Of a DNA stretch of 64,000 nt, positions 25,825 to 62,210 are shown one piece after another. The notes under the pieces are model-generated. The model had not been told where the DNA came from, searched no databases, and was given only the letters and a program-made list of their open reading frames with translations. Numbering within the stretch: the stretch's first letter is position 1; the number at the start of each line of letters is the position of its first letter. The position numbers and the translations under genes are program-made. This DNA is from a virus. The DNA lies in the IMG/VR virus record IMGVR_UViG_3300009093_000034, positions 30,632 to 94,631 of that record; one strand, written 5' to 3'.

Positions 25825-25849
25825 AACTTATAGTTCATGGAGACTACAG

Positions 25850-27061
25850 ATGGCCCGTATTGAAAAGCTGATCATGGTGACCGGTGAAGAGAATCACAAC
25901 AAGGTCTATGAGCTGATCGACAACGAGAACGGTACTTGTACCGCCAAGTGGGGTCGGGTTGGCGCTGCTCTTCAGGAGTGCAACTACCCCATCAGCGAGT
26001 TTGAAAAGAAGCTCAAGGAAAAGGTCAAGAAGGGCTATCGCGTGATCACCGATCTTCTGTCTGTCGAGAAAAGTGATGGTAAGACCACCACTACGGACGA
26101 CGAAGAGGTAAAGATCCAGAACATGTCCCGTGAGGCCATGGAGTTGATCAACTTCCTCCAGAGTTGTGCTAAGGGCATCGTCAAGCAGAACTACACCGTC
26201 AAAGTTGCCGACGTTACTCAGAAGCAGATCGACGCTGCTCAGGCCATCCTGGACGGACTGGTTGCTCTGTCCAACCAGAACTGGTCTCGTGAAGAGGCCA
26301 ACAAGATCCTTTTGGATCTTTACAACACCATCCCCCGGAAGATGAGCAACACCAAGAACTTCCTCATCCAGATCGACAACATCACGAAGAAGCGCCTTCA
26401 GGAGTTGATCTCCAGTGAAGCCGATCTTCTTGACGTTATGCGCGGTCAGGTTCAGACCACGAACGTTGCTCCCAAGTCTTCCACTGGCGAAGTCAAGTTG
26501 GATATTGAGATTCGTCTCGCTACTCCCGATGAGATCGATGAGATCTCCAAGAAGACTGACTTTGATGTTCGTAGTGCTGCAAGGATCTATCGGGTGGAGA
26601 ACACCAAGACCAAGAATCGCTACGAAAGTATCAACAAGCAGAATGAACAGCTTCTCTACCACGGTTCTCGCAGCCAGAACTGGTGGTCGATCATCAACGG
26701 CGGTTTGAAGATTCGTCCGACCAACGCCGTTCACACTGGCTCGATGTTCTCCGATGGTATCTACGCTGCTGACAAAGCTCAGAAGTCTCTCGGTTACACC
26801 GACGGTGGTTATTGGACTGGTAGCAGTGGTTCCTCGAAGAGGTTCCTCGGCATCTACAGTTTCAACCTCGGTCGTCAGTGGGATCTGTTCGCTGGTGGTC
26901 AGCGTCATGCCAGCTGGATGATGCAGCTCAACCTGAAGAAGATCAACGACAAGGGTTTTGACTCTCTGTTCGCTAAGGGTGGAGCAGATCTTCGCAACAA
27001 TGAGATGATCGTGTTCGAAGAGGCTCGCTGCACCATCAAGTATCTGATCGAGATGCGTTAA
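25850..27061 (+). CDS. PARP-like ADP-ribosyltransferase (WGR domain + helical domain + ART catalytic domain)
   Basis: The N-terminal WGRVG is a WGR motif. The C-terminal LYHGSRSQNWWSIINGG, GIYAADKAQKS and NEMIVFEEARCTIKYLIE blocks supply the H-Y-E triad of PARP catalytic domains. Confidence 0.75.
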   Translation: MARIEKLIMVTGEENHNKVYELIDNENGTCTAKWGRVGAALQECNYPISEFEKKLKEKVKKGYRVITDLLSVEKSDGKTTTTDDEEVKIQNMSREAMELINFLQSCAKGIVKQNYTVKVADVTQKQIDAAQAILDGLVALSNQNWSREEANKILLDLYNTIPRKMSNTKNFLIQIDNITKKRLQELISSEADLLDVMRGQVQTTNVAPKSSTGEVKLDIEIRLATPDEIDEISKKTDFDVRSAARIYRVENTKTKNRYESINKQNEQLLYHGSRSQNWWSIINGGLKIRPTNAVHTGSMFSDGIYAADKAQKSLGYTDGGYWTGSSGSSKRFLGIYSFNLGRQWDLFAGGQRHASWMMQLNLKKINDKGFDSLFAKGGADLRNNEMIVFEEARCTIKYLIEMR

Positions 27062-27063
27062 CC

Positions 27064-27300
27064 ATGTCAAAGTTTGAGATCTCCATCGAAGCTGGTCTCC
27101 TTATGAAAGGTCAGGTTAGACGTCTCCTTGAAAAAACCAAGAGAGATCTTCTTTGGAACAATCCTCAAGCTTACGTTGAGATCTACGAAGAATCATACTT
27201 TCTTGAATCTGAATTTACCTTCAGGGTCAAGAACATCAACGAAGTCGAACGTCTTGCTCTTCTGAAGTATTTTCAGAAGATCGACCAGGAGACCTTATGA
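27064..27300 (+). CDS. hypothetical protein
   Basis: 78 aa immediately downstream of the PARP-like gene. Confidence 0.4.
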   Translation: MSKFEISIEAGLLMKGQVRRLLEKTKRDLLWNNPQAYVEIYEESYFLESEFTFRVKNINEVERLALLKYFQKIDQETL

Positions 27301-31571: not shown

Positions 31572-32435
31572 ATGAGAAGTTTCAAGTTCATTTCGTTGCT
31601 GGCAGTTGTTCTGTTGGCACTGGCAAGCTGTTCTCAGCTCCAGGTTAAGGCAGGTCACGTTGGTATCATCGTTGACCAGTACGGATCTGGTTCTGGTGTT
31701 GAACAGCAGGTCGTAGGTGTAGGTTATCACAGTCTTGGCTGGAATCAGCAAGGATATGACTACCCGATCTATAAGATCCAGTACCAGTTCAAGAACAATG
31801 GCAAAGAAGGAGTGGATGAATCGATCCCCTTCCAATCTAAGGAAGGTGTGAAGTGCTCGGCTGATGTGGCCATTCAGGTCCAGGTCGAGAACGATAACAA
31901 GTCGATCATCAACTTGTTCACCAGTTACCGAGAGGACATCGAGACCGTCGTCCATACCCAGGTTCATAATCGACTTCGTGACTACATGGGTCTCTACGCA
32001 TCCAAGATGACCGTAGATGATCTGTATGGAAACAAGCGCTTTGACATGTTGATTGATGTTACCAAGGCCCTAGCGGACGAGTTCTCCAAGCAAGGTCTGA
32101 TCATTGACAACCTTAGCTTCTTGGGTGTTGTTGAGTTCCCTGAGACTATCAAGTCTGCCATTGATGCAAAGATGGCTGCTACTCAAAAGGCTCAGCAGAG
32201 AGACAACGAGATCGCGACTGCTCAGGCAAGTGCTGCTATCCAGGTCACCCAGGCTAAAGGTGAGGCCGATTCTAACCGAATCTTGGCTGCTTCGATCAGT
32301 CCTGAGATCCTGAAGCTCAAGGAGCTCCAGAACCAAGAGAAGTTCATCGAGGCTCTTTCCACAGGAAAGGCTACGATGCCTACCACGTATGTGGCAGGTG
32401 GTTCTAACTCCCAGACCTTCATTCCTTTGAAGTAA
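31572..32435 (+). CDS. SPFH/band-7 domain lipoprotein (HflK/C-stomatin-like)
   Basis: It has a lipobox LASC. The SPFH-like core is followed by an Ala/Gln-rich coiled coil AATQKAQQRDNEIATAQASAAIQVTQAKGEADSNRILAAS typical of HflK/C. Confidence 0.65.
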   Translation: MRSFKFISLLAVVLLALASCSQLQVKAGHVGIIVDQYGSGSGVEQQVVGVGYHSLGWNQQGYDYPIYKIQYQFKNNGKEGVDESIPFQSKEGVKCSADVAIQVQVENDNKSIINLFTSYREDIETVVHTQVHNRLRDYMGLYASKMTVDDLYGNKRFDMLIDVTKALADEFSKQGLIIDNLSFLGVVEFPETIKSAIDAKMAATQKAQQRDNEIATAQASAAIQVTQAKGEADSNRILAASISPEILKLKELQNQEKFIEALSTGKATMPTTYVAGGSNSQTFIPLK

Positions 32436-33505: not shown

Positions 33506-34897
33506 TTATAATACCTCTAATTGATCAGCAATGGTTCTAAAAAATTGTTTCAAAGTTGATATGTACTTGTCTCTTGGTTCATTTTTAACCGTAAGAACAT
33601 CACTACCCTCATAATGAAGATCAATGAACTCTTCAGCATCTTTGTCGTATTCTTCTTTGAAGAAGTTAAAAAAGGAACCTTGAGGATCATCAGAAGCCTT
33701 TTCTGCGGCAGAAACTAATACCTTTAGAATATTTACACCTGCCCAAACTTCACCATCTCCCATCATGTCTCTAGCATTTTCTAGAGGCAGTAATATAGAA
33801 ACGTTCTCTTCATCAAAAAGTGCTGGAGTATCTCCTTTCTCAGGATCTTCAATGATGTTTCCCTTTGTAGTTGCTTTGGATACATCATAGTCTACTCTAT
33901 TAAGAACTTCATCCAATCTGTTCAGTACGTTAATCATCTTGTTCATTTTGCTTTCCTTTAGGTATGGGTTATCTTTAACCTTTGTAGCCATGTCCTCAAT
34001 CTCTTCATCAGACATCCAGTCTGCCCAAAAGACCTTAGAGTTTACATCTTTGATGATCTCAGGAATAGAAGTTCCTCTTCTGACTTCATCGGCGATGAAC
34101 TTTTGAAGTCTGTCTAGATTTTCAGTAACATCTTTTTTGAAGTCTTCACTCTCAAAATCCATGTAGTCGATAGTCTTTCCTAGGATCTTCTTAAGCTCTG
34201 AGCGAGAAAACTTGTACTTCTTCTCAAGACGATCAAGGATATCTTCTCGTGGAAAACCTTCATCAATCAAACCTTCGAACTCATCTTCAATTTGACCGTT
34301 CGTGATCTCTTTGTTCTTTGGATCACGATCATTTAACCAATCATTGTAAGCTTCCATAGCACTAGACATCTCAGAACCCATGAGATCTTGTAGAGCGATA
34401 AGCATGTCCTCTCTATCGTAACCACCACGCTTCATATCGTCGAGGATCTCGTTTAGTTCGTCTTGATAAGTCATACTTTCCTCCAGTTTAGAGTTCTCTT
34501 TAAGAGAAGAATTCCACGTAGAACTACCTTCTTTCTTCCAAGACCAATCAATTTTTCCAGTGGTCTCGTTTTGAATTCCTCTGTAGATGAAGTCACATAG
34601 ACTGTAGAACTCGATACCTTTGATACTTGGAAGTTTAGTGGTTCTTGGGCTATCAGGAGCCTTATCCATTATATCCCGATAAGGATCATCATTGTTGTAG
34701 TAGTGGATGAAGTTAGGGTGTTCTTCAATACCTGCGCAGTCTCCCCCTGAGATCAACTTATCTGCTTTTTTTGCAGATATATAGTACTTGGTGAGAATCC
34801 TATAAGTAAATTCAGGAAAACCGTCTCCATGAGAATAGATAGATTTATAACTATCCCAATCTTTCAGTTTTAAGAAGATCGCTGCTCTTGTTGCCAT
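33506..34897 (-). CDS. hypothetical acidic protein (structural module?)
   Basis: 463 aa, Asp/Glu-rich. Confidence 0.5.
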   Translation of the reverse strand: MATRAAIFLKLKDWDSYKSIYSHGDGFPEFTYRILTKYYISAKKADKLISGGDCAGIEEHPNFIHYYNNDDPYRDIMDKAPDSPRTTKLPSIKGIEFYSLCDFIYRGIQNETTGKIDWSWKKEGSSTWNSSLKENSKLEESMTYQDELNEILDDMKRGGYDREDMLIALQDLMGSEMSSAMEAYNDWLNDRDPKNKEITNGQIEDEFEGLIDEGFPREDILDRLEKKYKFSRSELKKILGKTIDYMDFESEDFKKDVTENLDRLQKFIADEVRRGTSIPEIIKDVNSKVFWADWMSDEEIEDMATKVKDNPYLKESKMNKMINVLNRLDEVLNRVDYDVSKATTKGNIIEDPEKGDTPALFDEENVSILLPLENARDMMGDGEVWAGVNILKVLVSAAEKASDDPQGSFFNFFKEEYDKDAEEFIDLHYEGSDVLTVKNEPRDKYISTLKQFFRTIADQLEVL

Positions 34898-36372
34898 TAT
34901 TCAGTTCCTTCTGGGTTTTGAATATAGTTCTCAAGAATGTTTCTAGTGTAAGAGTCTCCGCCTATTGTTTCAACGAACTCTTGGTTCTCTTGGAAGGTCT
35001 TAAGATCTTTCTCATAAGAGATGAAAGCTCTTTCCAAAGACTCTTTGTACTCTTTGGACTCCATCTTCTCACCACAATCTGGGCAAACGTAAGTTCCGCC
35101 ACCTTCATTCAAGAAGTCTTGAAGAAGTCCGGCACAACCTGGGCAAGCACCTTCATTCTTGAAAAACTTGGTGTCGTGATTGAAGACCTTATCTTCTGGA
35201 GCAGATGGATAATGTGGATCATCCCAATGAGACTTAGACTTGAGAAGTTTTTCATTCAACTTGCTCTTTTTGGCTTGACTAAGAACTGATTCTGCGAAGG
35301 ACACGTCATCTGCATCCCAAAGTACCAAACTTGGTTCAAACTCTTTGGTGATGAACTCAGAGGCCTTAGTAGCTGGCCAACCAAGACCATTCATAAGAAG
35401 TTGCTTGGCTCTTTCAATCACGATGTCCACATCTTCAGGAGAGACTTTCAAAGCTTCTGTTAAAGAAACAGATTCGTTGATCTCGTTTACTTTTTTAGCA
35501 AGATTCTTGATGACCTTGTTTCTACCTTGAGCAGAAACATATCGTTGAATATAAAAAGGGTTGTATTCTTTCTTCAAAGAATCTTCTAACTTGTTAGCTA
35601 GATCCCCTGTAACTCCAAGTTCATTCAAGATTCCTTGAATGATCTCCTCATATAACTTTTGTGTCTTCTCGTCTGCTTTGATTGTTTCGGTAATAGGACC
35701 ATGAGTTTCTGGATAGTTGATCTCAGCTAATCCTCCTGGAGAGTTCCAGGGATCACTGTTAGTGTCTTCTCTGTCTTGTAATTTTTCTTTAACAGATTCA
35801 ACCCAATCGTTGATCTGATAAACAACATCTTCAAAGGATGCGTTAAAACTTTCTGGGTATCCTTCATTTAAGATGTTATTAATACCGTCGCCTAAGGATC
35901 CTTCAGCAGTATCAAAAGCAAGTGAAGCCCAGAATCCGTTGACCTCAAAAGCAGCAGAAGCAAAATTTTCTAAAGCTTCAACCAATTCAGGAATTCTTTC
36001 TTTATCAAATATGTCAAACGAGGGATTAAAACTAGATTCCTTAAGAGGACTTTTCTTTTTACTTCCCTGGTACTCATCGTACCAAGAGAGAACACCTTCA
36101 AGGATTTTGTAAGGAGACTTCTTAGCCTCTTCGTTCAAGTTCACTCGAACAGGCATCTTGTCGTTGGTGATCCAAGAGCTAACAGCTTCTAAAACCTTAT
36201 CTAGGTCCGTCTCTGTCTTACTAGCTTTCTCAACAACCTTGATTAGAGAAGCAACACCTCTCCAATCCATTCCCCACTCTTTGAACTTTCCTAGATCTTT
36301 ACCTGAGTTCTTAAACTCAAAGGTGAGACCGTTGATCTTGTCTACTAAAATATTTCCGCTATCACTTGGCAT
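34897..36372 (-). CDS. hypothetical protein with C-terminal Cys cluster
   Basis: 491 aa with CPGCAG...CPDCG near the C-terminus. It has an RBS GGAGGAATGAATCCATG. Confidence 0.5.
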   Translation of the reverse strand: MPSDSGNILVDKINGLTFEFKNSGKDLGKFKEWGMDWRGVASLIKVVEKASKTETDLDKVLEAVSSWITNDKMPVRVNLNEEAKKSPYKILEGVLSWYDEYQGSKKKSPLKESSFNPSFDIFDKERIPELVEALENFASAAFEVNGFWASLAFDTAEGSLGDGINNILNEGYPESFNASFEDVVYQINDWVESVKEKLQDREDTNSDPWNSPGGLAEINYPETHGPITETIKADEKTQKLYEEIIQGILNELGVTGDLANKLEDSLKKEYNPFYIQRYVSAQGRNKVIKNLAKKVNEINESVSLTEALKVSPEDVDIVIERAKQLLMNGLGWPATKASEFITKEFEPSLVLWDADDVSFAESVLSQAKKSKLNEKLLKSKSHWDDPHYPSAPEDKVFNHDTKFFKNEGACPGCAGLLQDFLNEGGGTYVCPDCGEKMESKEYKESLERAFISYEKDLKTFQENQEFVETIGGDSYTRNILENYIQNPEGTE

Positions 36373-36482: not shown

Positions 36483-37013
36483 TTAGATCTCAAGAGCGGT
36501 TGCGGTAACTCCGGTGACGGTAACCGTACCACCCGTAACAGCGAGCTGAGAGAAGTCGAACCAGTAAGAGGTACCTGGAACAACGGTAGCAAAACCGTGA
36601 AGAACGAATCCGACGGTTTGAGCAGCGACGGCCTCGACGAAGGTCTGAGCAATACCAACCAAGGTACCAGCGACTGCGGCACCGTTAGCAGGAGCAGCAC
36701 CAGTTCCAATTCTGGCATCAAGAGTTGCACCATCAGAGATGGTTCCGTTCTTAACAACACCAGTGATGGTGATCTCTACCTGAGTAGAGAAAGCTGGGGT
36801 GATGGATCCTGCAAGTCCACCCATGACTGCGGTAGCAGAGGTAGTTCCGGCTGGTGAAGCTGCGGTTACCTGAGCTGCGACTCTTCCGGAAGCTGGACCA
36901 AAGGCTGGTGACCATCTACCAACCTCGCCACCTTGGTTCTGCAAGAACATACCAATGTGGAGATCACTTGCTGCCTCAACAACTGTTGGGACTAAAGACT
37001 GTACTTGTGACAT
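36483..37013 (-). CDS. GC-rich Ala/Gly/Thr-rich protein (fibre-operon terminal gene)
   Basis: 176 aa with an RBS TAAGGAG. Its codon usage is the GC-richest in the block. Confidence 0.5.
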   Translation of the reverse strand: MSQVQSLVPTVVEAASDLHIGMFLQNQGGEVGRWSPAFGPASGRVAAQVTAASPAGTTSATAVMGGLAGSITPAFSTQVEITITGVVKNGTISDGATLDARIGTGAAPANGAAVAGTLVGIAQTFVEAVAAQTVGFVLHGFATVVPGTSYWFDFSQLAVTGGTVTVTGVTATALEI

Positions 37014-37062: not shown

Positions 37063-37263
37063 TTAGTGGGAAGGGGTCACTACGGTTCGGTCTAAAAACT
37101 CGCTTCTAGCAGTTTGCATAAGAATATTCACTTCACCTTCGTCATAAAAACGATTCTTCTTGGCATAGGTCTTAACCCAAGAGTAAACCGTCCAATAATA
37201 CACGAAAGGTTGTTGGTGAAATTCTTTGATAAAGAGATCGATCTGATCTTTTGAGACACTCAT
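37063..37263 (-). CDS. hypothetical small protein
   Basis: 66 aa. Confidence 0.4.
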   Translation of the reverse strand: MSVSKDQIDLFIKEFHQQPFVYYWTVYSWVKTYAKKNRFYDEGEVNILMQTARSEFLDRTVVTPSH

Positions 37264-37269
37264 GATAAG

Positions 37270-39267
37270 TTAGTTTCCTAGTCTAGTGATTTGAGCCCAG
37301 TCGTTAGATCCACCACCATTTGTTCCGGTGATGTCCCTAAATTGGATTGCATCTCCTGCTAAGAGCTGGAGTTTTATTGCACTGTGGTAAGTTCCAGTGG
37401 TTGGAGGACTCATCATAACTCTTAAGTTAGATCCATTCTTCACAAGCTCAATAACGTGGTTAGTAGTAGTTCCGTTCACAATGGAACATTCATATAATCC
37501 TGAGACCGGTATGGTAAAAGTACCGGCGCTATACATGTTATGAGTATCTACTACTTTGGTAGTATACAAGATCGGGTTGTTAATCGTTGCAGCAGAAGAC
37601 CCAATGTAGTCTGCATGAACAAGAGCTGGTTGTTCTGCTGTGTTTCCATTAGAGATCTTTCTGATTCTCCAGAGAAAAGTTGAGAAAGTTGACCAATCGT
37701 CTCCTGCTCCACCATAAGCAGCACCAGAAGCAGGTCTTGCATAACGAGCAAAGCCAACTGTGACGTCAGTTCCTGTGATTCCGTTGAACCTAGTTCCAAA
37801 GTCAACCGTGTTTTGTCTCAAGTAATAAAGACCTAAGTTTCCTCTATCAGCACTGACCCAAGTTTTTCCAGAGTCAACAGAGTACTCAAAGGTTAGAATG
37901 TCACTAGGTTGAACATTTCTTTGAAATCTAACCACTTTGCTTCTAGCAACTGTCAATGTTACAGGGAACAAAGATCCTGCTGGACCAGGAACTGATGTAG
38001 AAACTGTTGCGTCAGAGTCAGCAGTAGCTGAGTTAGATGCGTACTCAGTAAAGTCTGTGTAAAGATTTATATTGACTGGCCAAGTAGAGATAGGTATGGT
38101 ACACTCAAGAGAAACTCGAATCACAGTAGTTGATAGCGCAAAGTTTGCACTGTTCCAATAACCAAGACCAACAGCAGACCCGTTTGTGTTAAGATCGGAG
38201 ATCAACAATCTTGTTGAATCAAAAGCGCTAACTGAACCACTTCCGTAAGACGTACCATTGAAGATCTTAACAGCTCCAAGAACTGTACCGTTAAAGTTTA
38301 CACCATCATCCAACACAATGTTTGTGGTGTCTATCGTGTATCCAGAAGGAAGAGAGATGAGATAAACACCTGAACCTGCAGAGCCTGCTGCTGTTTGATT
38401 CAAAGTCCAGAACAATCTCATTTTAGAACCAATTCGACTCCAAGAAGCTTTTTGAGTGTTTGTTCCAAGAGTAGGGTTGCTTGTTACTCCTGTGAGAGTT
38501 GGAGTGTAAGTACTTTCTGATCCAATGGCAGCAGCTTGAATTTGAACGTAAGAGCTAACCTGGATCTTAGCTAAGTTCACTGTATAAGCTAAAGCAGAGG
38601 TTGAGGCCACATGGAAGATAACACGATAACTTAAAGAAGATGATGCAAAGAACGAACAAGAGAACTTAGCTGGTTGAGTAGCTGTGCTAGGTAGAGATGA
38701 CAATGAAAGAGGAATTAAGACTGAGTTTGTGATGTCATATAAAAAGACGGCCATGTCATTGTCAGCATAATTTGAAGAGGTCTTGTAAGACAATGTGAAG
38801 GTAAGTTGTTGACCTCTATCTGAGTTTGAGATTTGGAAGGTCTCAGAGACACCTTGACCTTGACGATTCGCCGCATCTTTAGTAAAGAGAAAATCACTTG
38901 TGAGATCTAGAGGAGTTGTGGTGTTGACAGCCACTGTCACGTTTGGAGAACCACCGGTACCATCAACTGGAGAAGTCGATGCAGCGTCGGCGTAAGTTGA
39001 GACGTTTGTTAAACCTTGACCACCTGAAGGGTTTGAAATGTATCCAGTTGATCCTGATCCACTTGAGACTGTGGTCCAATAAGTTTGAGAGGTATCTAAG
39101 AGAGGGTCTTGTCCTGTGTTTGCTTGAACAGCTTCGAACAAAGATCCGTTTCTGTTGACAATGGCTTGAATTGGATAAGGAACTCCAGCGGACCAGAGAG
39201 CAACTTGAATGTCTGATTGCCTGATAGCAGGAGAAAGGGCAATTGGCCAACCTAAGGATCTTGACAT
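37270..39267 (-). CDS. tail fibre protein with CBM-like module and C1q-like C-terminal domain
   Basis: 665 aa. It shares an N-terminal jelly-roll-like module (FTKDAANRQGQG...) with the 1472-aa fibre. It shares a C-terminal ~110-aa domain (VDTH..G.F..P..GLY...KNGS...GD.I...ITRLG) with the two upstream ORFs. Confidence 0.65.
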   Translation of the reverse strand: MSRSLGWPIALSPAIRQSDIQVALWSAGVPYPIQAIVNRNGSLFEAVQANTGQDPLLDTSQTYWTTVSSGSGSTGYISNPSGGQGLTNVSTYADAASTSPVDGTGGSPNVTVAVNTTTPLDLTSDFLFTKDAANRQGQGVSETFQISNSDRGQQLTFTLSYKTSSNYADNDMAVFLYDITNSVLIPLSLSSLPSTATQPAKFSCSFFASSSLSYRVIFHVASTSALAYTVNLAKIQVSSYVQIQAAAIGSESTYTPTLTGVTSNPTLGTNTQKASWSRIGSKMRLFWTLNQTAAGSAGSGVYLISLPSGYTIDTTNIVLDDGVNFNGTVLGAVKIFNGTSYGSGSVSAFDSTRLLISDLNTNGSAVGLGYWNSANFALSTTVIRVSLECTIPISTWPVNINLYTDFTEYASNSATADSDATVSTSVPGPAGSLFPVTLTVARSKVVRFQRNVQPSDILTFEYSVDSGKTWVSADRGNLGLYYLRQNTVDFGTRFNGITGTDVTVGFARYARPASGAAYGGAGDDWSTFSTFLWRIRKISNGNTAEQPALVHADYIGSSAATINNPILYTTKVVDTHNMYSAGTFTIPVSGLYECSIVNGTTTNHVIELVKNGSNLRVMMSPPTTGTYHSAIKLQLLAGDAIQFRDITGTNGGGSNDWAQITRLGN

Positions 39268-39662
39268 TATGAACCTATCCTAGTGATCTGAATATAGCTG
39301 GCCGTAGGACTGCTTGACGCAGTTCCTGTAGTGTCACGCACATCGATAGTATCATTGACTGCCAGACGAACAGTCGTCACCAATTGTACACGACCTGAAC
39401 TACTACCGTCAGAGCCTTGCTTGAATGCACTACCATTTTTGTAAAGAGTCACAATATGACCTGACGATACTATGCAAAGAGCTGTGATTTGATACACACC
39501 AGCTTTAGGCGCGGTAAACTTCCAGGTACCTGTACCTGTGGTTACACATGAATCTGTATCTTCAACGAGTGTGGACCAGTTGATCGGAGTGTTAATTGTT
39601 GCTGCATCTGAGTTTGAATACTCAGCACGAATGAGGGATGTTTCCATCCATAGTTTAGCCAT
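39267..39662 (-). CDS. stand-alone C1q/TNF-like domain protein (fibre tip paralog)
   Basis: 131 aa. GTWKFTAPKAGVYQI...LYKNGSAF...VNDTIDV...IQITRIGS matches the C-terminal domains of both fibre proteins. Confidence 0.6.
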   Translation of the reverse strand: MAKLWMETSLIRAEYSNSDAATINTPINWSTLVEDTDSCVTTGTGTWKFTAPKAGVYQITALCIVSSGHIVTLYKNGSAFKQGSDGSSSGRVQLVTTVRLAVNDTIDVRDTTGTASSSPTASYIQITRIGS

Positions 39663-42600
39663 TAGCTACCGATCCTTGTGATCTGGATCCACACGTTAAC
39701 GTCTGATGGTTGAGAAGCAGCACTGTCGTTTTGAAGCCAGATCTGATCTCCTACTACCAATCGAAGAGTGATGTTTGAAGAACCAGAGGTTGCTGTTACT
39801 GGAGTGGTACCAAAGTACCTCCATCTAGAACCATTCTTAAAGATCTGACAGTTACCTGCTGTTCCTGTGGTATAGGAGTTGGTTTCTACCAAATAGAGTC
39901 CAGCAACTGGACAAACGAACTTCCAGCTTGCTCCTGTTGTGACAGCACTGTGAGTATCTTCCACTTTCGTTTGAAAGTTAAGAACTACGTTAGTTGCCGT
40001 GGAAGGAACAGAGATGTACTCAGCTCTAACCATGGATGGTTGTTCAGCCATGTTTCCATTGCTGACTTTTCTAACTCGCCACTTAACAGTAGAAAACGCA
40101 CTCCAAGCTGAACCGTTATTGGTTCCATAAGTTGATCCAGGATAAATACCGCTGTTTCCTATTTCTACTAGAGCTCGTTTCTTGTTGGTTGTGTCTCGTC
40201 TTACTTGAACACCATATCTGGCGTTACCTTGAACAGCAAATTCCATAAAAGCATAAAGAGGTCCCCAACCTATTCCGTTATCGTTTATCTCTAGAATAAG
40301 TTGGTCTGTAGATTGAATCTCTCTAGCAAAGTCAACAGCGTACTTTGTGGAGAATCCGTTAGAGAAGTCTGTACTGACAACAGCAACAAAAGCACTTCCA
40401 TCTTGACCAGTTTTTTGTCCTGTGGTAAAGGTGGTGTTGGTAGTTGTTCCTCCAGATCCATCGTTAGATGCATACTCTGTGAAATCGCTTGCTAGGTTTA
40501 CATTTGACGACCATTGAGAGATCTTAGCCTGGAAGTAAACTGTGATGACGTCTGTAGACGCCCATGTGATTGGGGTGGTTGCTGTCCATGCTGTAGCTCC
40601 GTTACCACCAAAGGGGTAACGATACTCCAAGTTAAATCCGATTCCTCCGCCTAGAAGACCAGGAGATAAATCACCACCATAACGTGAAGATGAGTGGGTT
40701 CCTATTGCATATCCAACAGGCCTGAAGGTTGAGGTTAATCCTGAAGGGAAAAGAACGTTGATCTGACCAGTAACTGCTCCAGATAAGGTGATAGCTATGA
40801 CACCTTCCAAAAGATCGCCTTTACGCCAAACGTGAGAGTTTGCTAGGTCGATAGTTCCAGGAACGTTTTGGAAAGACATTTGACCGGCGTACTCTCCACC
40901 AATTGCTGCTCCAAGAACTGGAATGAATGGAGTGATAGTAACTTGATCGATGTTCATGGTCCAAGCAAGAGCGTTTGTTGTGGCAACATGGAAAACCAAA
41001 CGATAACTTGTTGATGTCGAAGCTGGCCAGAAGGTAGCTGAGAAATAGGTTCCAGCTGAAGCAGTTGGAAGAGAGTTTATTGAGATCGGAATGAAGTTCG
41101 AGTTTGTCTTATCATATAGATAGGCTAGAATGTCTCCTGCAGCGTAGTTTGTTGATGTCTTGAAGTAGAAGGACAAACCTAGAGTGGAACCTAGAACAGC
41201 CGGATCCAAGGTAAAGTCATATGAGATTCCTTGACCTTGTCTGTTGGCAGCATCTTTGGTAATTAGACCATCGCCTGTTCCAATGAGAGGTGTTGTTCCA
41301 TTTCTAGCTAGAGTAAGGACAGCTGTTCCACCAGTTCCATCAACTGGCGTTGCTGAAGCTCCATCGTTGTATGTTGCCCAGCCAGAGATATCACTCTCAA
41401 ATGTTCCATTAGAAATGTAGTTCAATCCACTGGACGGGTTGGTGAAGATGACGCTAGGGTTGTTCAACAAAACTGTATCAGGGAAAGCTTGAACTGTCCA
41501 AAAAGAGATCACTGTTCCAGTTGAGTCTTTTACACTTAAAGAGGAAAGATCTGGAATGTTAAAGGTGGTTGAACCATCTCCAACTCCATAAGAAGTTCCC
41601 CACAATGAGAACAACTGAGAATAAAAAGATCTACCAACAGCAGCTCCGTTCAATTGTAAGAGGTTTCCTGGAAGAGATCCAACAGAACCTGTCCAAAGAG
41701 TTGTTCTTCCAAGTCCTACAAGAGCCGTTGTTCCTGTGATGACTTGAACAGGCTCACCAATGGTGATCAAGAGGTCGGTGGCGTTGACAGCGATACCGAT
41801 AGCAACTCTGAAGCTTCCAATGGTGATGGTGTTAGGATCTGTGATGACTTGGCCATTTGTACCAAGATAGTAAAAGGTTCCAGGTGTCATTCCTGATCCG
41901 AAACCAACCATGATCGAGCCAGAGGCTTGCCAAACAATGGTAGCTGCAGAAGCTCCTCCATTGAAAGCTATTCCAATAGCAGTAGCTGTTGTCTCGGTGT
42001 CGTTGCTAGCGTGTTGAAGTGTTCCAGAGGACGTGATGTAGACCACTCTCTTGGTGGTGACTGCGTTTGTTCCTACGGTTCCTGTAGATGAAGCAGAACC
42101 TCCAACAGGAGTCCAGTTTGCGTGGGTTGTGTCTGTTGATGGATCGTGGTTTAGGTTACCGTTGGCGTTAGAAGAATAGGCAACACCTAATCTGTTGATG
42201 ATCGCGTATTGGGTGTAGGTAACGTTTGATTGCCAAAGAGGAAGAGACGAGATTCTAAAAGCTTCTTTGACTGAAGCTTGAGAAGGCGGTTGAGTAGTGG
42301 AGTTTGATGCGAAGGTAGCATCATCTATGGCAGCAAGACCAGACAAAGCTGAACTGAGACCCGTGACATTAGCTATGACTACGTTAGCAAACACTCCTGA
42401 AGCTGATAAAAATTTACCTGCTGCAGTATCACCAGAAGCTGGTGCAGGAACCACACCTTGAGTTCCACCAGATCCTGAATCTCCTATGAAAGTAGGAAGA
42501 TGAACCATAACTGAAGAAGGACTGTTAGCTTGAGGAATAGCAGAACTTCCTGAAAAGTTACTGAGGATAGCATTGTTTGGTATGCTAGCCATCTTAGTAA

Positions 42601-44080
42601 GAGTTACTGCTCCGTTTGAGATCGTTGTAGAAAGAGATCCGGCAGAGTTTGTTACATCTCCAGTTAAGGCAGGAAACTGAGCAGCCTGTAAGGTTCCTGA
42701 TACATCAGAGCTAAGAGAGATAGACAAGAGGGTCTTAACTTGAGAAGGCGTTAATGCGGCTGGAGTGGCTGGAGATCCCGTGTTGTTTCCGATGATAGAG
42801 TTGGCTGCCAGGTTTGCCATCTTGGAAAGACCAACTGCTCCAGCAGAGATGGTAACAGACAATGAGCCTGATGTTGTGGTAGCATCTCCTGTTAAGGCCG
42901 GAAATTGAGCAGCTTGAAGAGTTCCAGAGACATCTGTAGAAAGAGAGATCGCTAGTAAGGTTTTAACTTGAGTTGAGGTCAACTCAGATGGTGCTGCTGA
43001 AGAACCTGAAACGTTGCCTAAGATCGATGAGTTGGAGATGTTAGCCAACATTGACAAGGTGACTTGACTAGCTCCGATTGAGAACTGAGTTCCAGTAAGT
43101 GTTAAACCAGAGCCTGCTGTGTAACTAGGAACAGCGGAGAACTGGACGAAAGTGATGTTTGTGGTTCCTACGGTCAAACCTGAAGTAGGTGTTGTACAAA
43201 CCCATCCTGTTGAAGCATTTATTGTACCAGAAAGAACTAGAGAGAAAGCACCGAAGAACTCCGTAGGAGCATCCATACCAACAGATCTTGTAAGAACTAC
43301 AAAGAGTCCAGCTCCACCGGCGTTGGTGACTGTATAAAGACCATTGTGAGGTTGATTTCCTCCTGTCTCGTTCTTAACTAGAACAACATCGCCTAACGAA
43401 AGAACAACGCCATCTATGGTTAAGGTTCCACTTCCGTTCATGGTGATCGTAGCACCGACTCCTGAGGTTCCGTTGGAGTAGGTGTTGGAAGGAAGAGCCG
43501 TTGTTGTGGCTACTTTAGCAGAAGATTTGACAGACAAGCCTTGAGCTGTCATGTCAACGTAGTTCTTGGTAGCGATGTCTTGAGCAGCAGAAGGATCAAC
43601 GACTTGAGCTCGGCCAGATCCATCTCTTAGAACTGGTTGGTTTACTGTTGCTGAAGAGGTTCCTACTACCACCCAAGTTCCACCAGCTGATAAGAACTTA
43701 TGACTAGAGAAATCTCCAGAGGCTGGAGCTGGAACTAGACCAGCTGTTCCTCCAGAACCTGAGTCTCCAACCAAGATAGAAAGGTAAGCTGTGATGGCTG
43801 AGATCGCTGTAGCGACAGGTATTGCTGGAGACCCTGTGACGTTGGCTAGAACAGTGTGAGACGCTATGTTTCCTAGACCACCTGCTGCTAAAGCATCTTC
43901 TAGGTCTGGGATATCTGAGATCTGAGGATAAGGTTGGTTGTCTCTCTTGATCCCGTTCTCAGGATCAAACTCCATGGACCTACCATTCTGAGAAATGGTG
44001 ATCTTAGCTCCGGCCGTGATCTGTCCGGTTGTTTTGAGAGTACCGGTAAGGATGGATGGAACTAGGAGAGGATTTGCCAT
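39662..44080 (-). CDS. large tail fibre protein (1472 aa) with internal tandem repeats
   Basis: GDSGSGGTxGxVPAPASGD..KFLSAxG(T/V)W occurs twice. About 75-aa repeats (SQVKTLLxISLSxDVSGTLQAAQFPALTGD) occur about 2.5 times. It also has a CBM-like module and a C1q-like C-terminus. Confidence 0.75.
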   Translation of the reverse strand: MANPLLVPSILTGTLKTTGQITAGAKITISQNGRSMEFDPENGIKRDNQPYPQISDIPDLEDALAAGGLGNIASHTVLANVTGSPAIPVATAISAITAYLSILVGDSGSGGTAGLVPAPASGDFSSHKFLSAGGTWVVVGTSSATVNQPVLRDGSGRAQVVDPSAAQDIATKNYVDMTAQGLSVKSSAKVATTTALPSNTYSNGTSGVGATITMNGSGTLTIDGVVLSLGDVVLVKNETGGNQPHNGLYTVTNAGGAGLFVVLTRSVGMDAPTEFFGAFSLVLSGTINASTGWVCTTPTSGLTVGTTNITFVQFSAVPSYTAGSGLTLTGTQFSIGASQVTLSMLANISNSSILGNVSGSSAAPSELTSTQVKTLLAISLSTDVSGTLQAAQFPALTGDATTTSGSLSVTISAGAVGLSKMANLAANSIIGNNTGSPATPAALTPSQVKTLLSISLSSDVSGTLQAAQFPALTGDVTNSAGSLSTTISNGAVTLTKMASIPNNAILSNFSGSSAIPQANSPSSVMVHLPTFIGDSGSGGTQGVVPAPASGDTAAGKFLSASGVFANVVIANVTGLSSALSGLAAIDDATFASNSTTQPPSQASVKEAFRISSLPLWQSNVTYTQYAIINRLGVAYSSNANGNLNHDPSTDTTHANWTPVGGSASSTGTVGTNAVTTKRVVYITSSGTLQHASNDTETTATAIGIAFNGGASAATIVWQASGSIMVGFGSGMTPGTFYYLGTNGQVITDPNTITIGSFRVAIGIAVNATDLLITIGEPVQVITGTTALVGLGRTTLWTGSVGSLPGNLLQLNGAAVGRSFYSQLFSLWGTSYGVGDGSTTFNIPDLSSLSVKDSTGTVISFWTVQAFPDTVLLNNPSVIFTNPSSGLNYISNGTFESDISGWATYNDGASATPVDGTGGTAVLTLARNGTTPLIGTGDGLITKDAANRQGQGISYDFTLDPAVLGSTLGLSFYFKTSTNYAAGDILAYLYDKTNSNFIPISINSLPTASAGTYFSATFWPASTSTSYRLVFHVATTNALAWTMNIDQVTITPFIPVLGAAIGGEYAGQMSFQNVPGTIDLANSHVWRKGDLLEGVIAITLSGAVTGQINVLFPSGLTSTFRPVGYAIGTHSSSRYGGDLSPGLLGGGIGFNLEYRYPFGGNGATAWTATTPITWASTDVITVYFQAKISQWSSNVNLASDFTEYASNDGSGGTTTNTTFTTGQKTGQDGSAFVAVVSTDFSNGFSTKYAVDFAREIQSTDQLILEINDNGIGWGPLYAFMEFAVQGNARYGVQVRRDTTNKKRALVEIGNSGIYPGSTYGTNNGSAWSAFSTVKWRVRKVSNGNMAEQPSMVRAEYISVPSTATNVVLNFQTKVEDTHSAVTTGASWKFVCPVAGLYLVETNSYTTGTAGNCQIFKNGSRWRYFGTTPVTATSGSSNITLRLVVGDQIWLQNDSAASQPSDVNVWIQITRIGS
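42520..43110 (-). repeat. tandem ~225-nt coding repeats within tail fibre gene
   Basis: Protein residues ~325-520 form about 2.5 near-identical units. The repeat is visible at nucleotide level. Confidence 0.6.
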
Positions 44081-44471: not shown

Positions 44472-44815
44472 TTCAATCAGAAGCTGACCTTTGCCGGTTT
44501 ATCCGTTTCGGTCAGATGCCTTCTTGGCCTGCTGGACGCTTTCAAACCTATTTTGAAAGCAATAATCTTTTGATCGTAACTTACCATCCTTACCATCCTC
44601 AGGCAAGTTCAGATCTTATTAAAGTACTATCTATCGAGTATTTTCCAAGCGAGTTTGCTTCTGGAATCCTTGGTGGTTGTCGTCTCTCTGTTCATGACAA
44701 AGCCAGTGCTATGATCTTCTTGACTCAAGTGAATTCAATGCAAGAGCCTCTTTACCTGGAAGAAGAAATCAAGCGTCTTAAGGACATCTCTGATCTTTTT
44801 GAGAGTGTAAAATGA
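44468..44815 (+). CDS. hypothetical protein (tandem paralog B)
   Basis: 115 aa, paralogous to 44136..44471. Confidence 0.45.
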   Translation: MIQSEADLCRFIRFGQMPSWPAGRFQTYFESNNLLIVTYHPYHPQASSDLIKVLSIEYFPSEFASGILGGCRLSVHDKASAMIFLTQVNSMQEPLYLEEEIKRLKDISDLFESVK

Positions 44816-45591
44816 GCTCAGAACTTGCTAACCTCGCAGTCTATAACGCTGGCATGAAGAAGTCGATGATGGACAAGATGTTCTTCATCGACAAAGTCGA
44901 TGCCCATGTTTTCATCGACTATGGCTGTGCCGACGGAACTCTCATTCACTTTCTTCGAGGTCTCTTTCCTGAGTTCATCTACTATGGCTTTGACATCTCT
45001 GAAGACATGATCCAGGAAGCCAAGAAGAAGAACCCTGAGATCGCTCACAACTTCACCTCCGACTGGAGTTACATCTCTGACAGAATTCCTTCTCTTAGAG
45101 GAGAGGGAAAGATCTCTGTTCTCTTGTCCTCGATCATCCACGAGGTCTACAGCTACGGAACCGGAAACGATGTTGAGACTTTCTGGGATCGAATCTTCAA
45201 TGATGGTTTTGACTACATCGTTATCAGAGACATGATGCCCAGCACGAGTATGAACCGCCAGGCTGACATCAACGACGTAGCCAAGATCTACCGTAAGGCT
45301 GATAAAGAAAAGCTCTACGAGTTCCAGCAGACTTGGGGTTCTATCGAGAACAACAAGAGCATGATCCACTGGTTCCTCAAGTATCGTTACGACGACAACT
45401 GGGAACGTGAAGTCAAAGAGAACTATCTCCCTTTGAATCGGGAACAGTTCTTGAGCATGCTTCCAGACAACTACGACATCACCTTTCATGAGCACTTCAT
45501 TCTTCCTTACCTCCTCACTCAGGTTCAGAAAGACTTTGGAGTCGTGATCAAGGATAACACTCACTTGAAATTGATCTTAAGGAAAGCATGA
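44812..45591 (+). CDS. class I SAM-dependent methyltransferase
   Basis: VFIDYGCADGT is motif I. An acidic FDISEDM forms motif II. SSIIHEV forms motif IV. Confidence 0.6.
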   Translation: MSSELANLAVYNAGMKKSMMDKMFFIDKVDAHVFIDYGCADGTLIHFLRGLFPEFIYYGFDISEDMIQEAKKKNPEIAHNFTSDWSYISDRIPSLRGEGKISVLLSSIIHEVYSYGTGNDVETFWDRIFNDGFDYIVIRDMMPSTSMNRQADINDVAKIYRKADKEKLYEFQQTWGSIENNKSMIHWFLKYRYDDNWEREVKENYLPLNREQFLSMLPDNYDITFHEHFILPYLLTQVQKDFGVVIKDNTHLKLILRKA

Positions 45592-46142: not shown

Positions 46143-46574
46143 ATGGTTACAAGAAAAATTTGGCGTTTTGAAAACGAAAAAGGTGAAGGTCCTTATAACG
46201 GACACCCTAGTCCAAAATTTCTCTTTAAGTCTACTCATGACGGAGAGTCTAAGAAACATCCTCATCCCAAGTATGACTTTAAGAACTCTAAGATCATTAG
46301 ATTCTTAAACAACATGAACACTAAAGATCACTTTAGATGTGGATTTTCTACAAAGAAACAGGCATTTGAGTGGTTTACTGAACGAGAAAGAAAGATCTTG
46401 AAAAATAATGGCTACAATTTAGTCCGTAAAAATGCAGATAGAATCTTTAAAGGAAACAAACAAGTTATCTATATTCGTGAAGGTCATTTAGAAGAACTTG
46501 TTAAAGTTTTTCGTTTTGATCATTCTGTTCCAAAAACATTAACATCAATATATTCAATCAGGAGCTCAACATGA
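46143..46574 (+). CDS. hypothetical basic protein
   Basis: ATG at 46143 just after the upstream stop, in frame with the longer tracked ORF. Confidence 0.4.
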   Translation: MVTRKIWRFENEKGEGPYNGHPSPKFLFKSTHDGESKKHPHPKYDFKNSKIIRFLNNMNTKDHFRCGFSTKKQAFEWFTERERKILKNNGYNLVRKNADRIFKGNKQVIYIREGHLEELVKVFRFDHSVPKTLTSIYSIRSST

Positions 46575-47122
46575 TGCTACAGACCATTGAAGGAAACCTA
46601 ATCACTCTCGCCCTTGAAGGCAAGTTCGACATGATCGCTCATGGTTGTAACTGCTTCCATACCATGGGAGGAGGGATCGCCAAGTCTATTTCTGAGACTT
46701 TTCCTGAAGCTCTTCAAGCCGACAGGGTCTTTGGAGAAAGAGGAAACGTTTGGAAGCTTGGTCAGGCTTCCAAGGCTACGATCTTTCGTGGAGACACTCA
46801 GTTTGTTGTGGTGAACCTCTATACTCAGTTTGAGCCTGGAGCCAACTTTGAATACTTGGCCTTGATCAACTCTTTAGAGCATCTCAAGAAATACTTGGAT
46901 ATTCATCTCTACGATCGAGTGTCCGATAAACCTTACCGTCTTGGTTTTCCCAAGATCGGAGCTGGTATTGGTGGTGGAGATTGGGACCAGATCTACCAGA
47001 TCATTGACCAGTCTCTTGACGAGAAGTATCGTGAGGAACAGGGAGTCGAAATCACGGTTGTCGAGTTCATTCCTCCTAATCCTCTTCAGGAGATCGTTGT
47101 TCGTTCTCTTCAGAAGAAGTAA
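46571..47122 (+). CDS. macrodomain protein (Poa1-like ADP-ribose processing)
   Basis: MIAHGCNCFHTMGGGIAKSI matches the Poa1/macro signature iaHqcNc.g.MGaGIA. Confidence 0.6.
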   Translation: MMLQTIEGNLITLALEGKFDMIAHGCNCFHTMGGGIAKSISETFPEALQADRVFGERGNVWKLGQASKATIFRGDTQFVVVNLYTQFEPGANFEYLALINSLEHLKKYLDIHLYDRVSDKPYRLGFPKIGAGIGGGDWDQIYQIIDQSLDEKYREEQGVEITVVEFIPPNPLQEIVVRSLQKK

Positions 47123-58553: not shown

Positions 58554-58919
58554 ATAAAGGGAACTCTGTTTCAGCGTAACAACCGAAGTTAGCGCCGACA
58601 AAATGAGATGATGCGAAAGGCCTTGGGGAGCACAAGGTACCAACGAGTAGCTACCATCTCACGTACTGTCTCTCATGCCCCTGAGAGAACTTCCGTTTTA
58701 AGAAGCGACCACGAATTGCTTCCCAGGTTGCGGAAGAACAAATAGTTCCCGAGCAAAGTAGTGTAACGGTTTCGCACGACCAGTGTCTACTGGTTAGTTC
58801 TAGGATCATCCCCTAGACTTTGCTATTGCTCTTGAATTCCACGTAAAGGAGGTTAACCATTCACATGAATTCCAAGGACAACTTTCACACTTCACACATC
58901 ATAAGGTCTTCTCACGAAA

Positions 58920-59890: not shown

Positions 59891-61972
59891 TTATGCAAAA
59901 ACCAACTCATCTTCAGGCTTGAGAGAGTAAGCGGGTTTGACTCCCTTGGTGGTCTTCACAGGATCAAAGGTGTTGAACGTGTAGGTTTTTCCTGTGGTTT
60001 CATCTAACACCTCGTAAAGAACTGGTAGGTCCAACTCTTTTCCTAGAGCGAAGACGTTGAAGGCAGTGAGACTGTGAAGGTCTGCTCCCATCTTTGGGTC
60101 TGTGTAAACTCCATACAAGGTTCTATCTCTACCAGCATTGTTCAAGCTTGTGTCGATAGCTGCAATTCTTGCTTGAAGAGAAGCGTAGTCAACCGTGGCC
60201 AACAGATAGTCTTCTGTGTTTGGAGACGTGATACATCTCTTAACCAGTTCAGCCAAGTCTCCGTGAGCAGGGATGTTTTGAAGGTTTGGGTTACTGCATC
60301 GGCCTCGGCCAGACTCAGTCAACATGACACCGTAGTTAGGATGCATTCTGAAACTGTTGTCTTCAGGATGGTACTTGATGTACTGCTCCCAACCCTTTTC
60401 ACTATCTTCTGAGCTTGAGATAAACGCCTTGAGGATTGTTTTCAACGATCTGAGCTCTTGAAGTTCTTCAGCTCCAGCTCTTCCTTTTTGCTTCCAACGT
60501 TCTAGACAAGCATCGTCCGTGATGTACAGACCAACCTTGGTTCTACCGAGCTCTTCCCAACCCATGGACTCAAAAAGTCGACCTAGAGCATGAGTACTGT
60601 TGAAGTCAAAGTCTCTAGTGATGTTCCAAAGTCCAGCCAACTTGGCCTCTAGTCTTTCAACCTCACCAAGAATTCTTGCTCTTGAACTTTGAAGCTCCGT
60701 CTTATTGACGTAGACACCTCGGTACTCTATCTCAGCGAACACTCGGTAAGCTGGCATCATGATCTCGTTGTAGTAACGTTCCATAGACCATGAAGGATCT
60801 TTCTCGTTTGGATATCTTTCATCCAACTCTCTGAGTTGGGACAATTGAGCAAAGTACACTCTGAATGCCAGGATGGCGTCTTTTGTAGCATAAGGAAAAC
60901 AAATGTGCTTTGGGATCAACGAGTAGTCTTCAACTCCAGTCTTCTCTTTGTAAAGGTCCAACTCTCTGTCATACCCTCCGAATGGGGTGTAGTAGTAAGT
61001 GGAAGGTTTAAGACCATTGTATCTCTGTTCATTGATGACGTGGCCGAGCTCGACAGTATCCCCGTAAACACAAGCAAAGGGAACTCCCTCTTGCCAAAGC
61101 CACTTAACGTCGAACTTGAGGTTAGCACCGATCTGTCTCTTCTTCTTGAGAAGTCTGTTCAGTGTTGGTTTATCAACTAGATGCCAAGGAACATAGTAAC
61201 CAGTCTCTCCGTCAAATGAGAACGTAAAACAAACAATTTTGTTTCCAAAGAAACTAAGACTGTTGGTTTCCAAGTCCCAAGAGAGGAAGGGATATCGATC
61301 ATCGTCTTCATATCTTTCACAGATCTCAATGAACTCTTCCGTAGTTTGAATATCAACTAGCTTCAGTTCAGGAATATCAGGAGGAGAGAGATCATAGTCT
61401 TGAGCCCAACTGAACTGATACTCAGCGAACCTTGTCTTGTACGTATCAACAGGAAACTCAGGATTTGATGGGACATTGTTCTTCCTCATGACTGGAACAA
61501 AGATCTCAAGGAAGGAGTCTAGAGGAAAGACCCACGTGTTAGCATCTGGAGACCAAAAGTAAGTCTTATTGAAAATGATGTCTCTAAAACAATCGATGGT
61601 GATGTCTGCACTTTTGTTGATAGCATAAAGAGCAGAACCTACTGCAAAGATAGCACGAGCACCTTCTGAGTACTTTTTCCAATTGGTTTGATTTGACCTA
61701 TAAAACTTAGCCAAACCTCCAGTGATCTCCTCTTTTTTAACGTCTACGTTCAAACTATACAAAATCTTGAAGCTTCTAATTCCATTCTTGAGAACAAACT
61801 TCTCGATCCTCTTAAGTTTCACAGGGGAGTAAAGTTCATCCAATAGAATGACATAAAAAGGTTCGTCTGGTTGAATATGATCAAGTGCTAATGCATCATG
61901 AACCATGTCAGCAGCAAGAACTTTCTTTGTTGCAGATGTGTTAAGTCCACCAAAACTAAAACTAAAACTCAT
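59891..61972 (-). CDS. family A DNA polymerase, N-terminal portion (3'-5' exonuclease + palm up to motif A); C-terminal motifs B/C not encoded here
   Basis: FLSWDLETNSL is Exo I. CSNPNLQNIPA is the Pol I-type NPNLQNIP block. LLATVDYASLQARIAA is motif A (DYSQIELR). The ORF ends before motif B (RxxxKxxxFGxxYG) and motif C (HDE). Confidence 0.7.
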   Translation of the reverse strand: MSFSFSFGGLNTSATKKVLAADMVHDALALDHIQPDEPFYVILLDELYSPVKLKRIEKFVLKNGIRSFKILYSLNVDVKKEEITGGLAKFYRSNQTNWKKYSEGARAIFAVGSALYAINKSADITIDCFRDIIFNKTYFWSPDANTWVFPLDSFLEIFVPVMRKNNVPSNPEFPVDTYKTRFAEYQFSWAQDYDLSPPDIPELKLVDIQTTEEFIEICERYEDDDRYPFLSWDLETNSLSFFGNKIVCFTFSFDGETGYYVPWHLVDKPTLNRLLKKKRQIGANLKFDVKWLWQEGVPFACVYGDTVELGHVINEQRYNGLKPSTYYYTPFGGYDRELDLYKEKTGVEDYSLIPKHICFPYATKDAILAFRVYFAQLSQLRELDERYPNEKDPSWSMERYYNEIMMPAYRVFAEIEYRGVYVNKTELQSSRARILGEVERLEAKLAGLWNITRDFDFNSTHALGRLFESMGWEELGRTKVGLYITDDACLERWKQKGRAGAEELQELRSLKTILKAFISSSEDSEKGWEQYIKYHPEDNSFRMHPNYGVMLTESGRGRCSNPNLQNIPAHGDLAELVKRCITSPNTEDYLLATVDYASLQARIAAIDTSLNNAGRDRTLYGVYTDPKMGADLHSLTAFNVFALGKELDLPVLYEVLDETTGKTYTFNTFDPVKTTKGVKPAYSLKPEDELVFA

Positions 61973-62210
61973 TATTTTCCTTCTTTATCAAAAGTAATAT
62001 ATAGACTAATGTGCAAATTTACTCACCAATGCAAATAAGAAAAAGTTAATATGGATTCCTAGATTGTTCATTTTGAACAGTGTGTAAAATGAGCAGCATA
62101 TATAAGAATCTAACATAATAAGAATCTTAGTACTTAGGGTCAAACCCGGATCAACAAGAGGTTGATTGGAGTTCATGAAGTTTTTACTGGACCATGTTAT
62201 ACTTGTTTGT

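Follow-up and report, generated by a model that had tools for sequence, protein, structure and literature searches.

Paralogous tail fibers and a free-standing C1q-like open reading frame in a predicted host-recognition module of an uncultured jumbo phage

We analyzed a 64,000-nucleotide stretch of IMG/VR virus record IMGVR_UViG_3300009093_000034 (positions 30,632 to 94,631, hereafter the window), with attention to a tail-fiber locus on its minus strand at positions 37,270 to 44,080. Our reading, which we hold at roughly 70% probability, is that this locus is a host-recognition module in which a long and a short fiber, each presumably trimeric, carry paralogous distal blocks, and in which a C1q-like head is encoded by a cistron of its own. 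The window is part of metagenomic contig ena:ERZ27252312:k141_4393686 (305,853 bp), and we treat its source as an uncultured jumbo phage of ~306 kb; phage-type genes within the window encode tape-measure-like and capsid-like proteins, a DNA polymerase and a GroEL-like chaperonin. The locus comprises three consecutive open reading frames (ORFs), each on the minus strand and at exactly the coordinates stated in an initial annotation that had been made from the sequence alone.

39662-44080, minus strand: long tail-fiber gene ("big", ORF of 1472 amino acids, aa), first gene of the operon
39267-39662, minus strand: free-standing C1q-like ORF (orf131, 131 aa)
37270-39267, minus strand: short tail-fiber gene (mid665, ORF of 665 aa)

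The evidence for paralogy begins with the two large proteins. The initial annotation described a shared module of ~150 aa, which is indeed present but understates the relationship, since similarity runs continuously through the distal ~600 residues. Residues 871-1472 of the long fiber align with residues 56-665 of the short fiber at 34% identity over 645 aa (blastp, E 1e-83). This distal block holds four domains, namely a domain resembling carbohydrate-binding modules (CBMs) of families 4 and 22 (D1), two beta domains (D2 and D3) and a C1q-like domain (D4), which map to the two genes as follows.

40910-41422, minus strand: D1 of the long fiber (aa 887-1057), CBM4/22-like jelly roll, aligned to D1 of mid665 with the fold taken from the mid665 model
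40043-40909, minus strand: D2 (aa 1058-1192) and D3 (aa 1193-1346) of the long fiber, beta domains placed by domain mapping
39665-40042, minus strand: D4 of the long fiber (aa 1347-1472), C1q-like head
38533-39045, minus strand: D1 of the short fiber (aa 75-245), from the AlphaFold model
38074-38532, minus strand: D2 of the short fiber (aa 246-398), from the AlphaFold model
37633-38073, minus strand: D3 of the short fiber (aa 399-545), from the AlphaFold model
37273-37632, minus strand: D4 of the short fiber (aa 546-665), C1q-like, from the AlphaFold model

In the predicted mid665 structure, which has a predicted local distance difference test (pLDDT) score of 83.7, residues 1-72 at the N-terminus are of low confidence and the four beta domains come after them. 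D1 adopts the beta-jelly-roll fold of CBMs in this model. Its likeness to CBM4, CBM22 and CBM16 is one of fold, and neither fiber protein matches a CBM family in Pfam at E <= 0.1. D3 has no sequence match in the PDB or Pfam. Because it occupies the place of the first C1q-like domain of tandem-type homologs, D3 was also considered as a cryptic C1q-like domain, and this was rejected at the sequence level (hhalign probability <2%). To judge from these alignments, what was duplicated within the locus is one contiguous four-domain block of ~600 aa, with no shuffling of two separate modules. The domain shuffling invoked by the initial annotation therefore does not describe the inside of the locus and holds across the wider family only.

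The C-terminal domain that the initial annotation saw in all three proteins is supported by pairwise and three-way alignment alike. orf131 aligns with residues 1347-1472 of the long fiber at 35% identity (blastp, E 6e-18) and with residues 546-665 of the short fiber at 34% (E 2e-19). The three domains are 34-40% identical pairwise and share 25 invariant columns, including those of the KNGS and QITR.G motifs. A profile of 53 tip domains matched collagen X (2.8e-10), C1q-C (1.5e-9), CTRP5 (3.8e-8) and Caprin-2 (9e-8) in the PDB, phmmer with D4 of the long fiber matched adiponectin and C1q-C, and many homologs carry precomputed assignments to PF00386 (C1q) and PF18573 (BclA_C). We defined the fold as a compact 10-strand jelly roll of ~120-140 aa that can be superposed on C1q-family heads, and the domain falls within this definition. 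The AlphaFold model of orf131 (pLDDT 88.6, nine strands) superposes on several such heads, which agrees with the TNF/C1q-type jelly roll that had been predicted for the tip.

The nearest kind of known domain is that of the gC1q family (C1q A/B/C, adiponectin, collagen VIII/X NC1, cerebellin, C1QL, CTRP5 and Caprin-2; PF00386) together with BclA (PF18573). In contrast to these proteins, the window heads lack a collagen-like stalk, and the domain either ends a phage fiber or stands alone. No run of at least four G-X-Y triplets was found, save for a four-triplet coincidence inside both GDSGSGGT motifs far upstream. The window heads differ further in that their own sequences fall just below the Pfam gathering cut-off, and the motifs of the window family (DTH.AVTTG..WKFT.P, YKNGS and I.R(I/V)G) differ from those of metazoan C1q.

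The long and short proteins are identified as tail fibers because residues 161-378 of the long one match the tail fiber of Legionella phage LME-1 (PDB 9EFK orf22, aa 236-447; E 5.7e-12) and because its tail-collar domain scores well above the Pfam threshold (PF07484, E 9e-11, 42 bits against a cut-off of 24). The tail-fiber assignment of the initial annotation is upheld on both counts. In addition, tblastn with the shaft region (aa 160-380) reached annotated tail fibers of many phages, including Melnitz, Mosig, PSS2 and S-CAM9, with pelagiphages, cyanophages and others represented. The tail of LME-1 carries tail fiber proteins in hexameric trimers as seen by cryo-EM (PDB 9EFK; PMC12407071). 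Homology to that fiber covers the shaft region of the long fiber and none of its distal receptor-binding half, and LME-1 is a T7-like podovirus, unlike the window phage. The proximal part of the long fiber is laid out as follows.

43676-43876, minus strand: partial repeat and first GDSGSGGTAGLVPAPASGD motif (aa 69-135; motif aa 105-123 at 43712-43768)
43061-43603, minus strand: conserved fiber shaft domain (aa 160-340), by phrog_30390, phrog_27782, tblastn and PDB 9EFK
42593-43048, minus strand: two complete repeats of 76 aa in tandem (aa 345-420 and 421-496)
42353-42592, minus strand: degenerate third repeat and second GDSGSGGTQGVVPAPASGD motif (aa 497-576; motif aa 533-551 at 42428-42484)
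42074-42238, minus strand: short W...Y...G..Y...DP...W motif region (aa 615-669), which recurs at the N-terminus of mid665
41540-41698, minus strand: phage tail collar domain (aa 795-847), by PF07484 and phrog_19618 (tail collar protein)

Tandem repeats and two copies of a GDSGSGGT motif had been noted in the long fiber, and we find both, with the repeat unit set at 76 aa and its number at two full copies and one degenerate copy. The full repeats share 68% of their residues (E 8e-31), and the third (aa 497-576) is 31% identical to the first (E 1e-7). The motif copies lie at residues 105 and 533, and the 66 aa around them (69-135 versus 497-562) are 51.5% identical (E 6e-21). The GDSGSGGT...VPAPASGD..KFL motif was also considered as Pfam Phage_fiber_2, for which a whole-protein scan gave no match at E <= 0.1. 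Residues 615-669 of the long fiber resemble residues 24-77 of mid665 (36% identity over 55 aa, E 1e-6), and residues 22-69 of the latter weakly match the tail fiber family phrog_20878. The similarities in the shared domain, module, repeats and motif are all well past chance.

DNA comparison gives a sense of the age of these duplications. Between the two fiber genes, similarity is confined to patches of 49-74 nt at ~72% identity, at a constant offset of 2377 nt, and recent gene conversion between the paralogs was rejected on the basis of these tracts. In DNA the two full repeats are 64.5% identical, and of their 76 codons 26 differ synonymously and 24 non-synonymously; owing to this low nucleotide identity, Tandem Repeats Finder did not detect them at the DNA level. 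Given the short patches and the codon differences, the duplications of the fiber block and of the repeats are best described as old, with the sequences kept by selection.

Searches beyond the window place the locus in a large family. A word-indexed search returned at least 924 homologs of the distal block, and a profile of the C1q-like domain matched 5273 cluster representatives out of 1.84 billion from metagenomes when the threshold was E <= 1e-3, and 1694 when it was E <= 1e-10. Among GenBank phages, tblastn with the distal block found one record only, MW202898 (uncultured virus, 'caprin-2 domain protein'), which matches residues 854-1450 of the long fiber, and tblastn with mid665 likewise found a single record. 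At the nucleotide level, megablast of the locus against 50,697 GenBank phage records gave no match.

The homologs vary in how the distal block is composed. Of the best 121 homologs, 120 contain D1, 93 the C1q-like domain and 16 D3, and most have two tandem C1q-like domains where the window locus has D3 followed by C1q. D3 is followed by a linker, W(R/K)VRK(V/I)SNGN(M/T/F)AE, that occurs in both window fibers (40043-40066 and 37633-37656, minus strand) and in homologs P0003, P0007, P0014 and P0080. After this conserved linker, some D3-type homologs continue with a C1q-like head and others with an unrelated C-terminal tip, which gives the linker the look of a site of tip exchange. The modularity of the wider family, as read from these domain layouts, is real.

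The smallest member of the locus, orf131, consists of the tip domain only, with ~10 residues ahead of the first strand. Against a family hidden Markov model (HMM) built with the window sequences excluded, it scores 108 bits, compared with 120 bits for D4 of the long fiber and 102 bits for the tip of the short one. Both junctions around orf131 read TAATG, a one-base overlap of stop and start, and in each case the following ATG has an AGGA 10 nt upstream of it, supplied by codons of the conserved ...TRIG... ending. Tetramers resembling a Shine-Dalgarno motif precede 52 of the 95 putative window genes (55%), versus 11.6% of random positions, and the AGGA motifs are therefore plausible ribosome-binding sites. 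The same fiber-locus genes occur on a Logan contig of 24 kb (SRR6056503), such that the protein of orf131 is present in two assemblies. On the strength of its sequence, orf131 is an intact, tip-only paralog that is predicted to be translated as a separate cistron.

The initial annotation had proposed that this ORF serves either as an alternative tip or as an assembly chaperone. The first proposal fails insofar as it would require fusion to the long fiber by frameshift, which is excluded by a TAG in the frame of orf131, two codons upstream of its ATG; the other frame runs into TAA within five codons. The second would place orf131 with chaperones encoded downstream of their fibers, such as lambda Tfa, Mu Tfa, T4 gp38 and Pam3 gp25, and we regard it as highly improbable. 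It is true that orf131 lies directly downstream of the long fiber and appears translationally coupled to it, which is the usual chaperone position, as for Pam3 gp24/gp25 (PMC9608196). Nevertheless, orf131 reaches the full score of a tip-family member and has no chaperone-family match in Pfam or PHROGs, which gave only a sub-threshold hit to SdrD_B and a hit to phrog_15750 (unknown function), respectively. It is predicted to fold as the tip of the client itself does, unlike the beta-sandwich plus helical-bundle architecture of Pam3 gp25 and Mu Tfa (PMC9608196). Moreover, most of the >900 homologous fibers with the same tip occur without such an ORF, and therefore the tip evidently folds without one.

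The working mechanism that we propose treats all three products as parts of one recognition module. The distal ~600 residues of the long and short fibers would be old paralogs with the same four-domain layout, headed by the lectin-type jelly roll of D1. To this the long fiber would add an N-terminal anchor, an LME-1-like shaft domain, a shaft extension formed by the 76-aa repeats, and a tail-collar domain. By analogy with the gC1q family and with trimeric phage fibers, both fibers and heads would trimerize; the CBM-like and C1q-like domains would bind host surface glycans, as CBMs and the C1q/TNF-like domains of other phage fibers suggest. Two diverged fibers could, on similar grounds, provide two receptor specificities or a two-step adsorption. 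Translation of orf131 would proceed separately, through termination and reinitiation at the TAATG overlap with its Shine-Dalgarno-like AGGA. The weakest step concerns its product, which may most likely act as a free trimeric head, that is, as an accessory adhesin or a tip-associated subunit.

Several observations weigh against this proposal. Searched as single sequences, the C1q-like domains score 21.1 bits (long fiber) and 17.5 bits with Pfam C1q, below the gathering cut-off of 23.7, and orf131 has no Pfam C1q match at all. Trimerization and glycan binding are steps that we infer by analogy. The N-terminus of mid665 is only ~70 aa long and of low confidence, and orf131 has no attachment segment. 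Two residues of orf131 depart from positions that are 94-96% conserved in the 50 homolog domains of the family alignment: residue 37 is Asp, against His in 47 of 50 members (DTH motif; H37D), and residue 103 is Asn, against Gly in 48 of 50 (L.AGD motif; G103N). Both fiber tips retain the His and the Gly. Free heads are also rare, with a full-length free C1q-like ORF in only one of the 79 IMG/VR loci that carry a C1q-like domain, and the contigs of the closest homologs (P0009 and P0003) have none. Given this rarity and the lack beside the nearest relatives, the free head may be dispensable.

Several of these points would also be expected if orf131 were an evolutionary leftover, either the 3' end of a third fiber gene that lost its shaft by deletion or a tip cassette that had been duplicated, persisting as a functionless open frame. 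The tip-only extent of orf131, its want of an anchor, its two substitutions and the scarcity of free heads are all in keeping with such an origin. So is its start, where MAK... aligns with the Met of the fiber linker ...SNGNMAE, an alignment from which we infer, tentatively, that the start codon may derive from a linker Met that was already there. The copy is nonetheless old, because it is only 34-35% identical to either neighbor, and despite this age it keeps an intact frame, scores on a par with the fiber tips in the family and has a confident structural model. The TAATG overlap and the AGGA at 10 nt are likewise kept at both junctions, which one would not expect of DNA that is decaying within a compact phage operon. 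We consider a leftover unlikely, and continue to favor a separately translated head within the recognition module.

The prevalence of tandem heads raises another possibility, in which orf131 would be a second head made as a separate trimer that docks on the terminal head of the fiber as a trans-acting distal cap. Two tandem heads are found in 68 of the 85 domain-bearing ORFs of the 79 IMG/VR loci and in most of the top homologs, and orf131 directly follows the head of the long fiber, in the order of a tandem second domain. However, the window fibers belong to a subfamily with D3 and a single head, whose members P0003, P0006 and P0009 have one head and no free ORF. Nor is orf131 any nearer to the second domains of tandem-type proteins than to single tips. 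Within the top 150 representatives its nearest relatives, at 41-45% identity, are the C-terminal domains of long fibers, none of them free-standing. Such a division of a tandem pair between two genes thus seems decidedly unlikely. A word-indexed protein search with orf131 alone returned only itself, and a metagenome scan gave no ortholog, all matches being at most 56% identical over partial stretches. A search of IMG/VR for loci related by the three window domains gave no relatives.

The single free head of the IMG/VR set resides in locus L030 (IMGVR_UViG_3300037418_001618, region 931-9711), on an unrelated viral contig of 84 kb. Here fibers of 1841 and 739 aa share a distal block of ~600 aa (40% identity) and are followed by a free C1q-like ORF of 149 aa that also begins MAK.... 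By comparison of the predicted proteins, this is the same three-part layout as in the window, namely a long fiber, a short paralogous fiber and a free C1q-like ORF. It bears on a more specific proposal, that the free head is a functional trans-acting module, either an exchangeable or detachable distal cap or a soluble receptor-binding decoy that lysis would set free to mask receptors on neighboring cells or debris. We rate this proposal as quite unlikely; if it were true, the recurrence in L030 of long fiber, short fiber and free head would mark a conserved three-part recognition system.

Small C1q-bearing proteins of another type are more common. Freshwater and marine metagenome contigs (L087-L117) encode 'mini-fibers' of 165-190 aa, in which an N-terminal segment of ~45 aa (for example MSSVVISGDTSGSITLSAPAVSGTNT..LPAATGTVMVSGNMPAFSAY) precedes one C1q-like domain with YKNGSAFK. 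orf131 differs from these in lacking the N-terminal segment and in being domain-only at 131 aa. Two of these loci, L113 and L114, have two C1q-bearing ORFs each, one of those in L113 being a partial ORF at the contig end. Phage proteomes likewise contain small C1q-domain proteins of 135-200 aa, and BFVD lists many viral 'C1q domain-containing proteins', including small ones of the cultured cyanophages S-CAM4 (163 aa) and SS120-1 (195 aa).

Comparable genes have been described before. C1q-domain genes that adjoin tail fibers have been reported from uncultured phages, namely marine pelagiphages (Mizuno et al. 2014, PMC3909814) and cryoconite (glacial) phages (Bellas et al. 2020, PMC7468147), and in both settings their products are regarded as putative receptor-binding proteins of a hypervariable kind. 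The window locus resembles these and MW202898 in having a C-terminal C1q-like domain, in a putative receptor-binding protein, in or beside a tail-fiber locus. It differs from the marine and glacial cases in that three paralogs share one operon of a ~306-kb phage and in that CBM-like, D2 and D3 domains accompany the heads. Among solved phage structures, TNF/C1q-like heads occur in the gp23 receptor-binding domain of mycobacteriophage TM4 (9N6A), the tail fiber of cyanophage A4 (9K09), the short tail fiber of A-1(L) (8KE9), PRD1 P5 (1YQ5), the Sf6 needle knob (3RWN) and Pam3 gp24. The structural similarity of the window head to these is lower than to true gC1q heads, sequence similarity is not detectable, and the proximal architectures of the fibers differ.

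C1q-tipped fibers are ordinary and already recognized equipment for phage host recognition, to which the free head adds a small twist. Phage receptor-binding proteins of this kind form a very large family, almost wholly uncultured, of which the locus is one well-resolved example. For annotating such fibers and predicting where tips are exchanged, the linker ...RK(V/I)SNGN(M/T)AE and the domain map (CBM-like, D2, D3 or C1q, C1q) could be of use. The free tip-only cistron is a minor question that leaves the view of phage host recognition unchanged.

The minus-strand gene run that contains the locus continues without interruption from the ORFs of 1472, 131 and 665 aa into ORFs of 66, 176, 491 and 463 aa. 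Scans of the locus for promoters and terminators gave nothing above shuffled expectation. The 66-aa ORF directly downstream of the short fiber has an AGGA 12 nt upstream of its ATG and no family match in Pfam or PHROGs; it is possibly part of the fiber module.

37063-37263, minus strand: 66-aa ORF directly downstream of the short fiber
36483-37013, minus strand: 176-aa protein rich in Ala, Gly, Thr and Val, with no Pfam, PHROG or PDB match
34897-36372, minus strand: 491-aa acidic protein with a C-terminal zinc ribbon (sub-threshold TFIIB-type match)

A search of the 463-aa protein against the PDB gave no match. A Macro-domain protein (46571-47122, plus strand) and a Band_7 (SPFH) protein (31572-32435, plus strand) flank the fiber operon, according to precomputed Pfam assignments on the parent contig.

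Elsewhere in the window, the GroEL-like chaperonin gene (62166-63854, plus strand; phrog_5725, E 9e-141) adjoins the DNA polymerase gene (59891-61972, minus strand), and ARAGORN reports a tRNA-like gene at 58752-58825 (plus strand) with an undetermined anticodon ('tc' at position 35). Two antisense ORF pairs are nearly mirrored, one at a methyltransferase-like gene (44812-45591, plus strand, and 44818-45564, minus strand) and one at a polymerase-like gene (25850-27061, plus strand, and 25844-27070, minus strand). The long ORFs antisense to these two genes are probably shadow ORFs and not genes.

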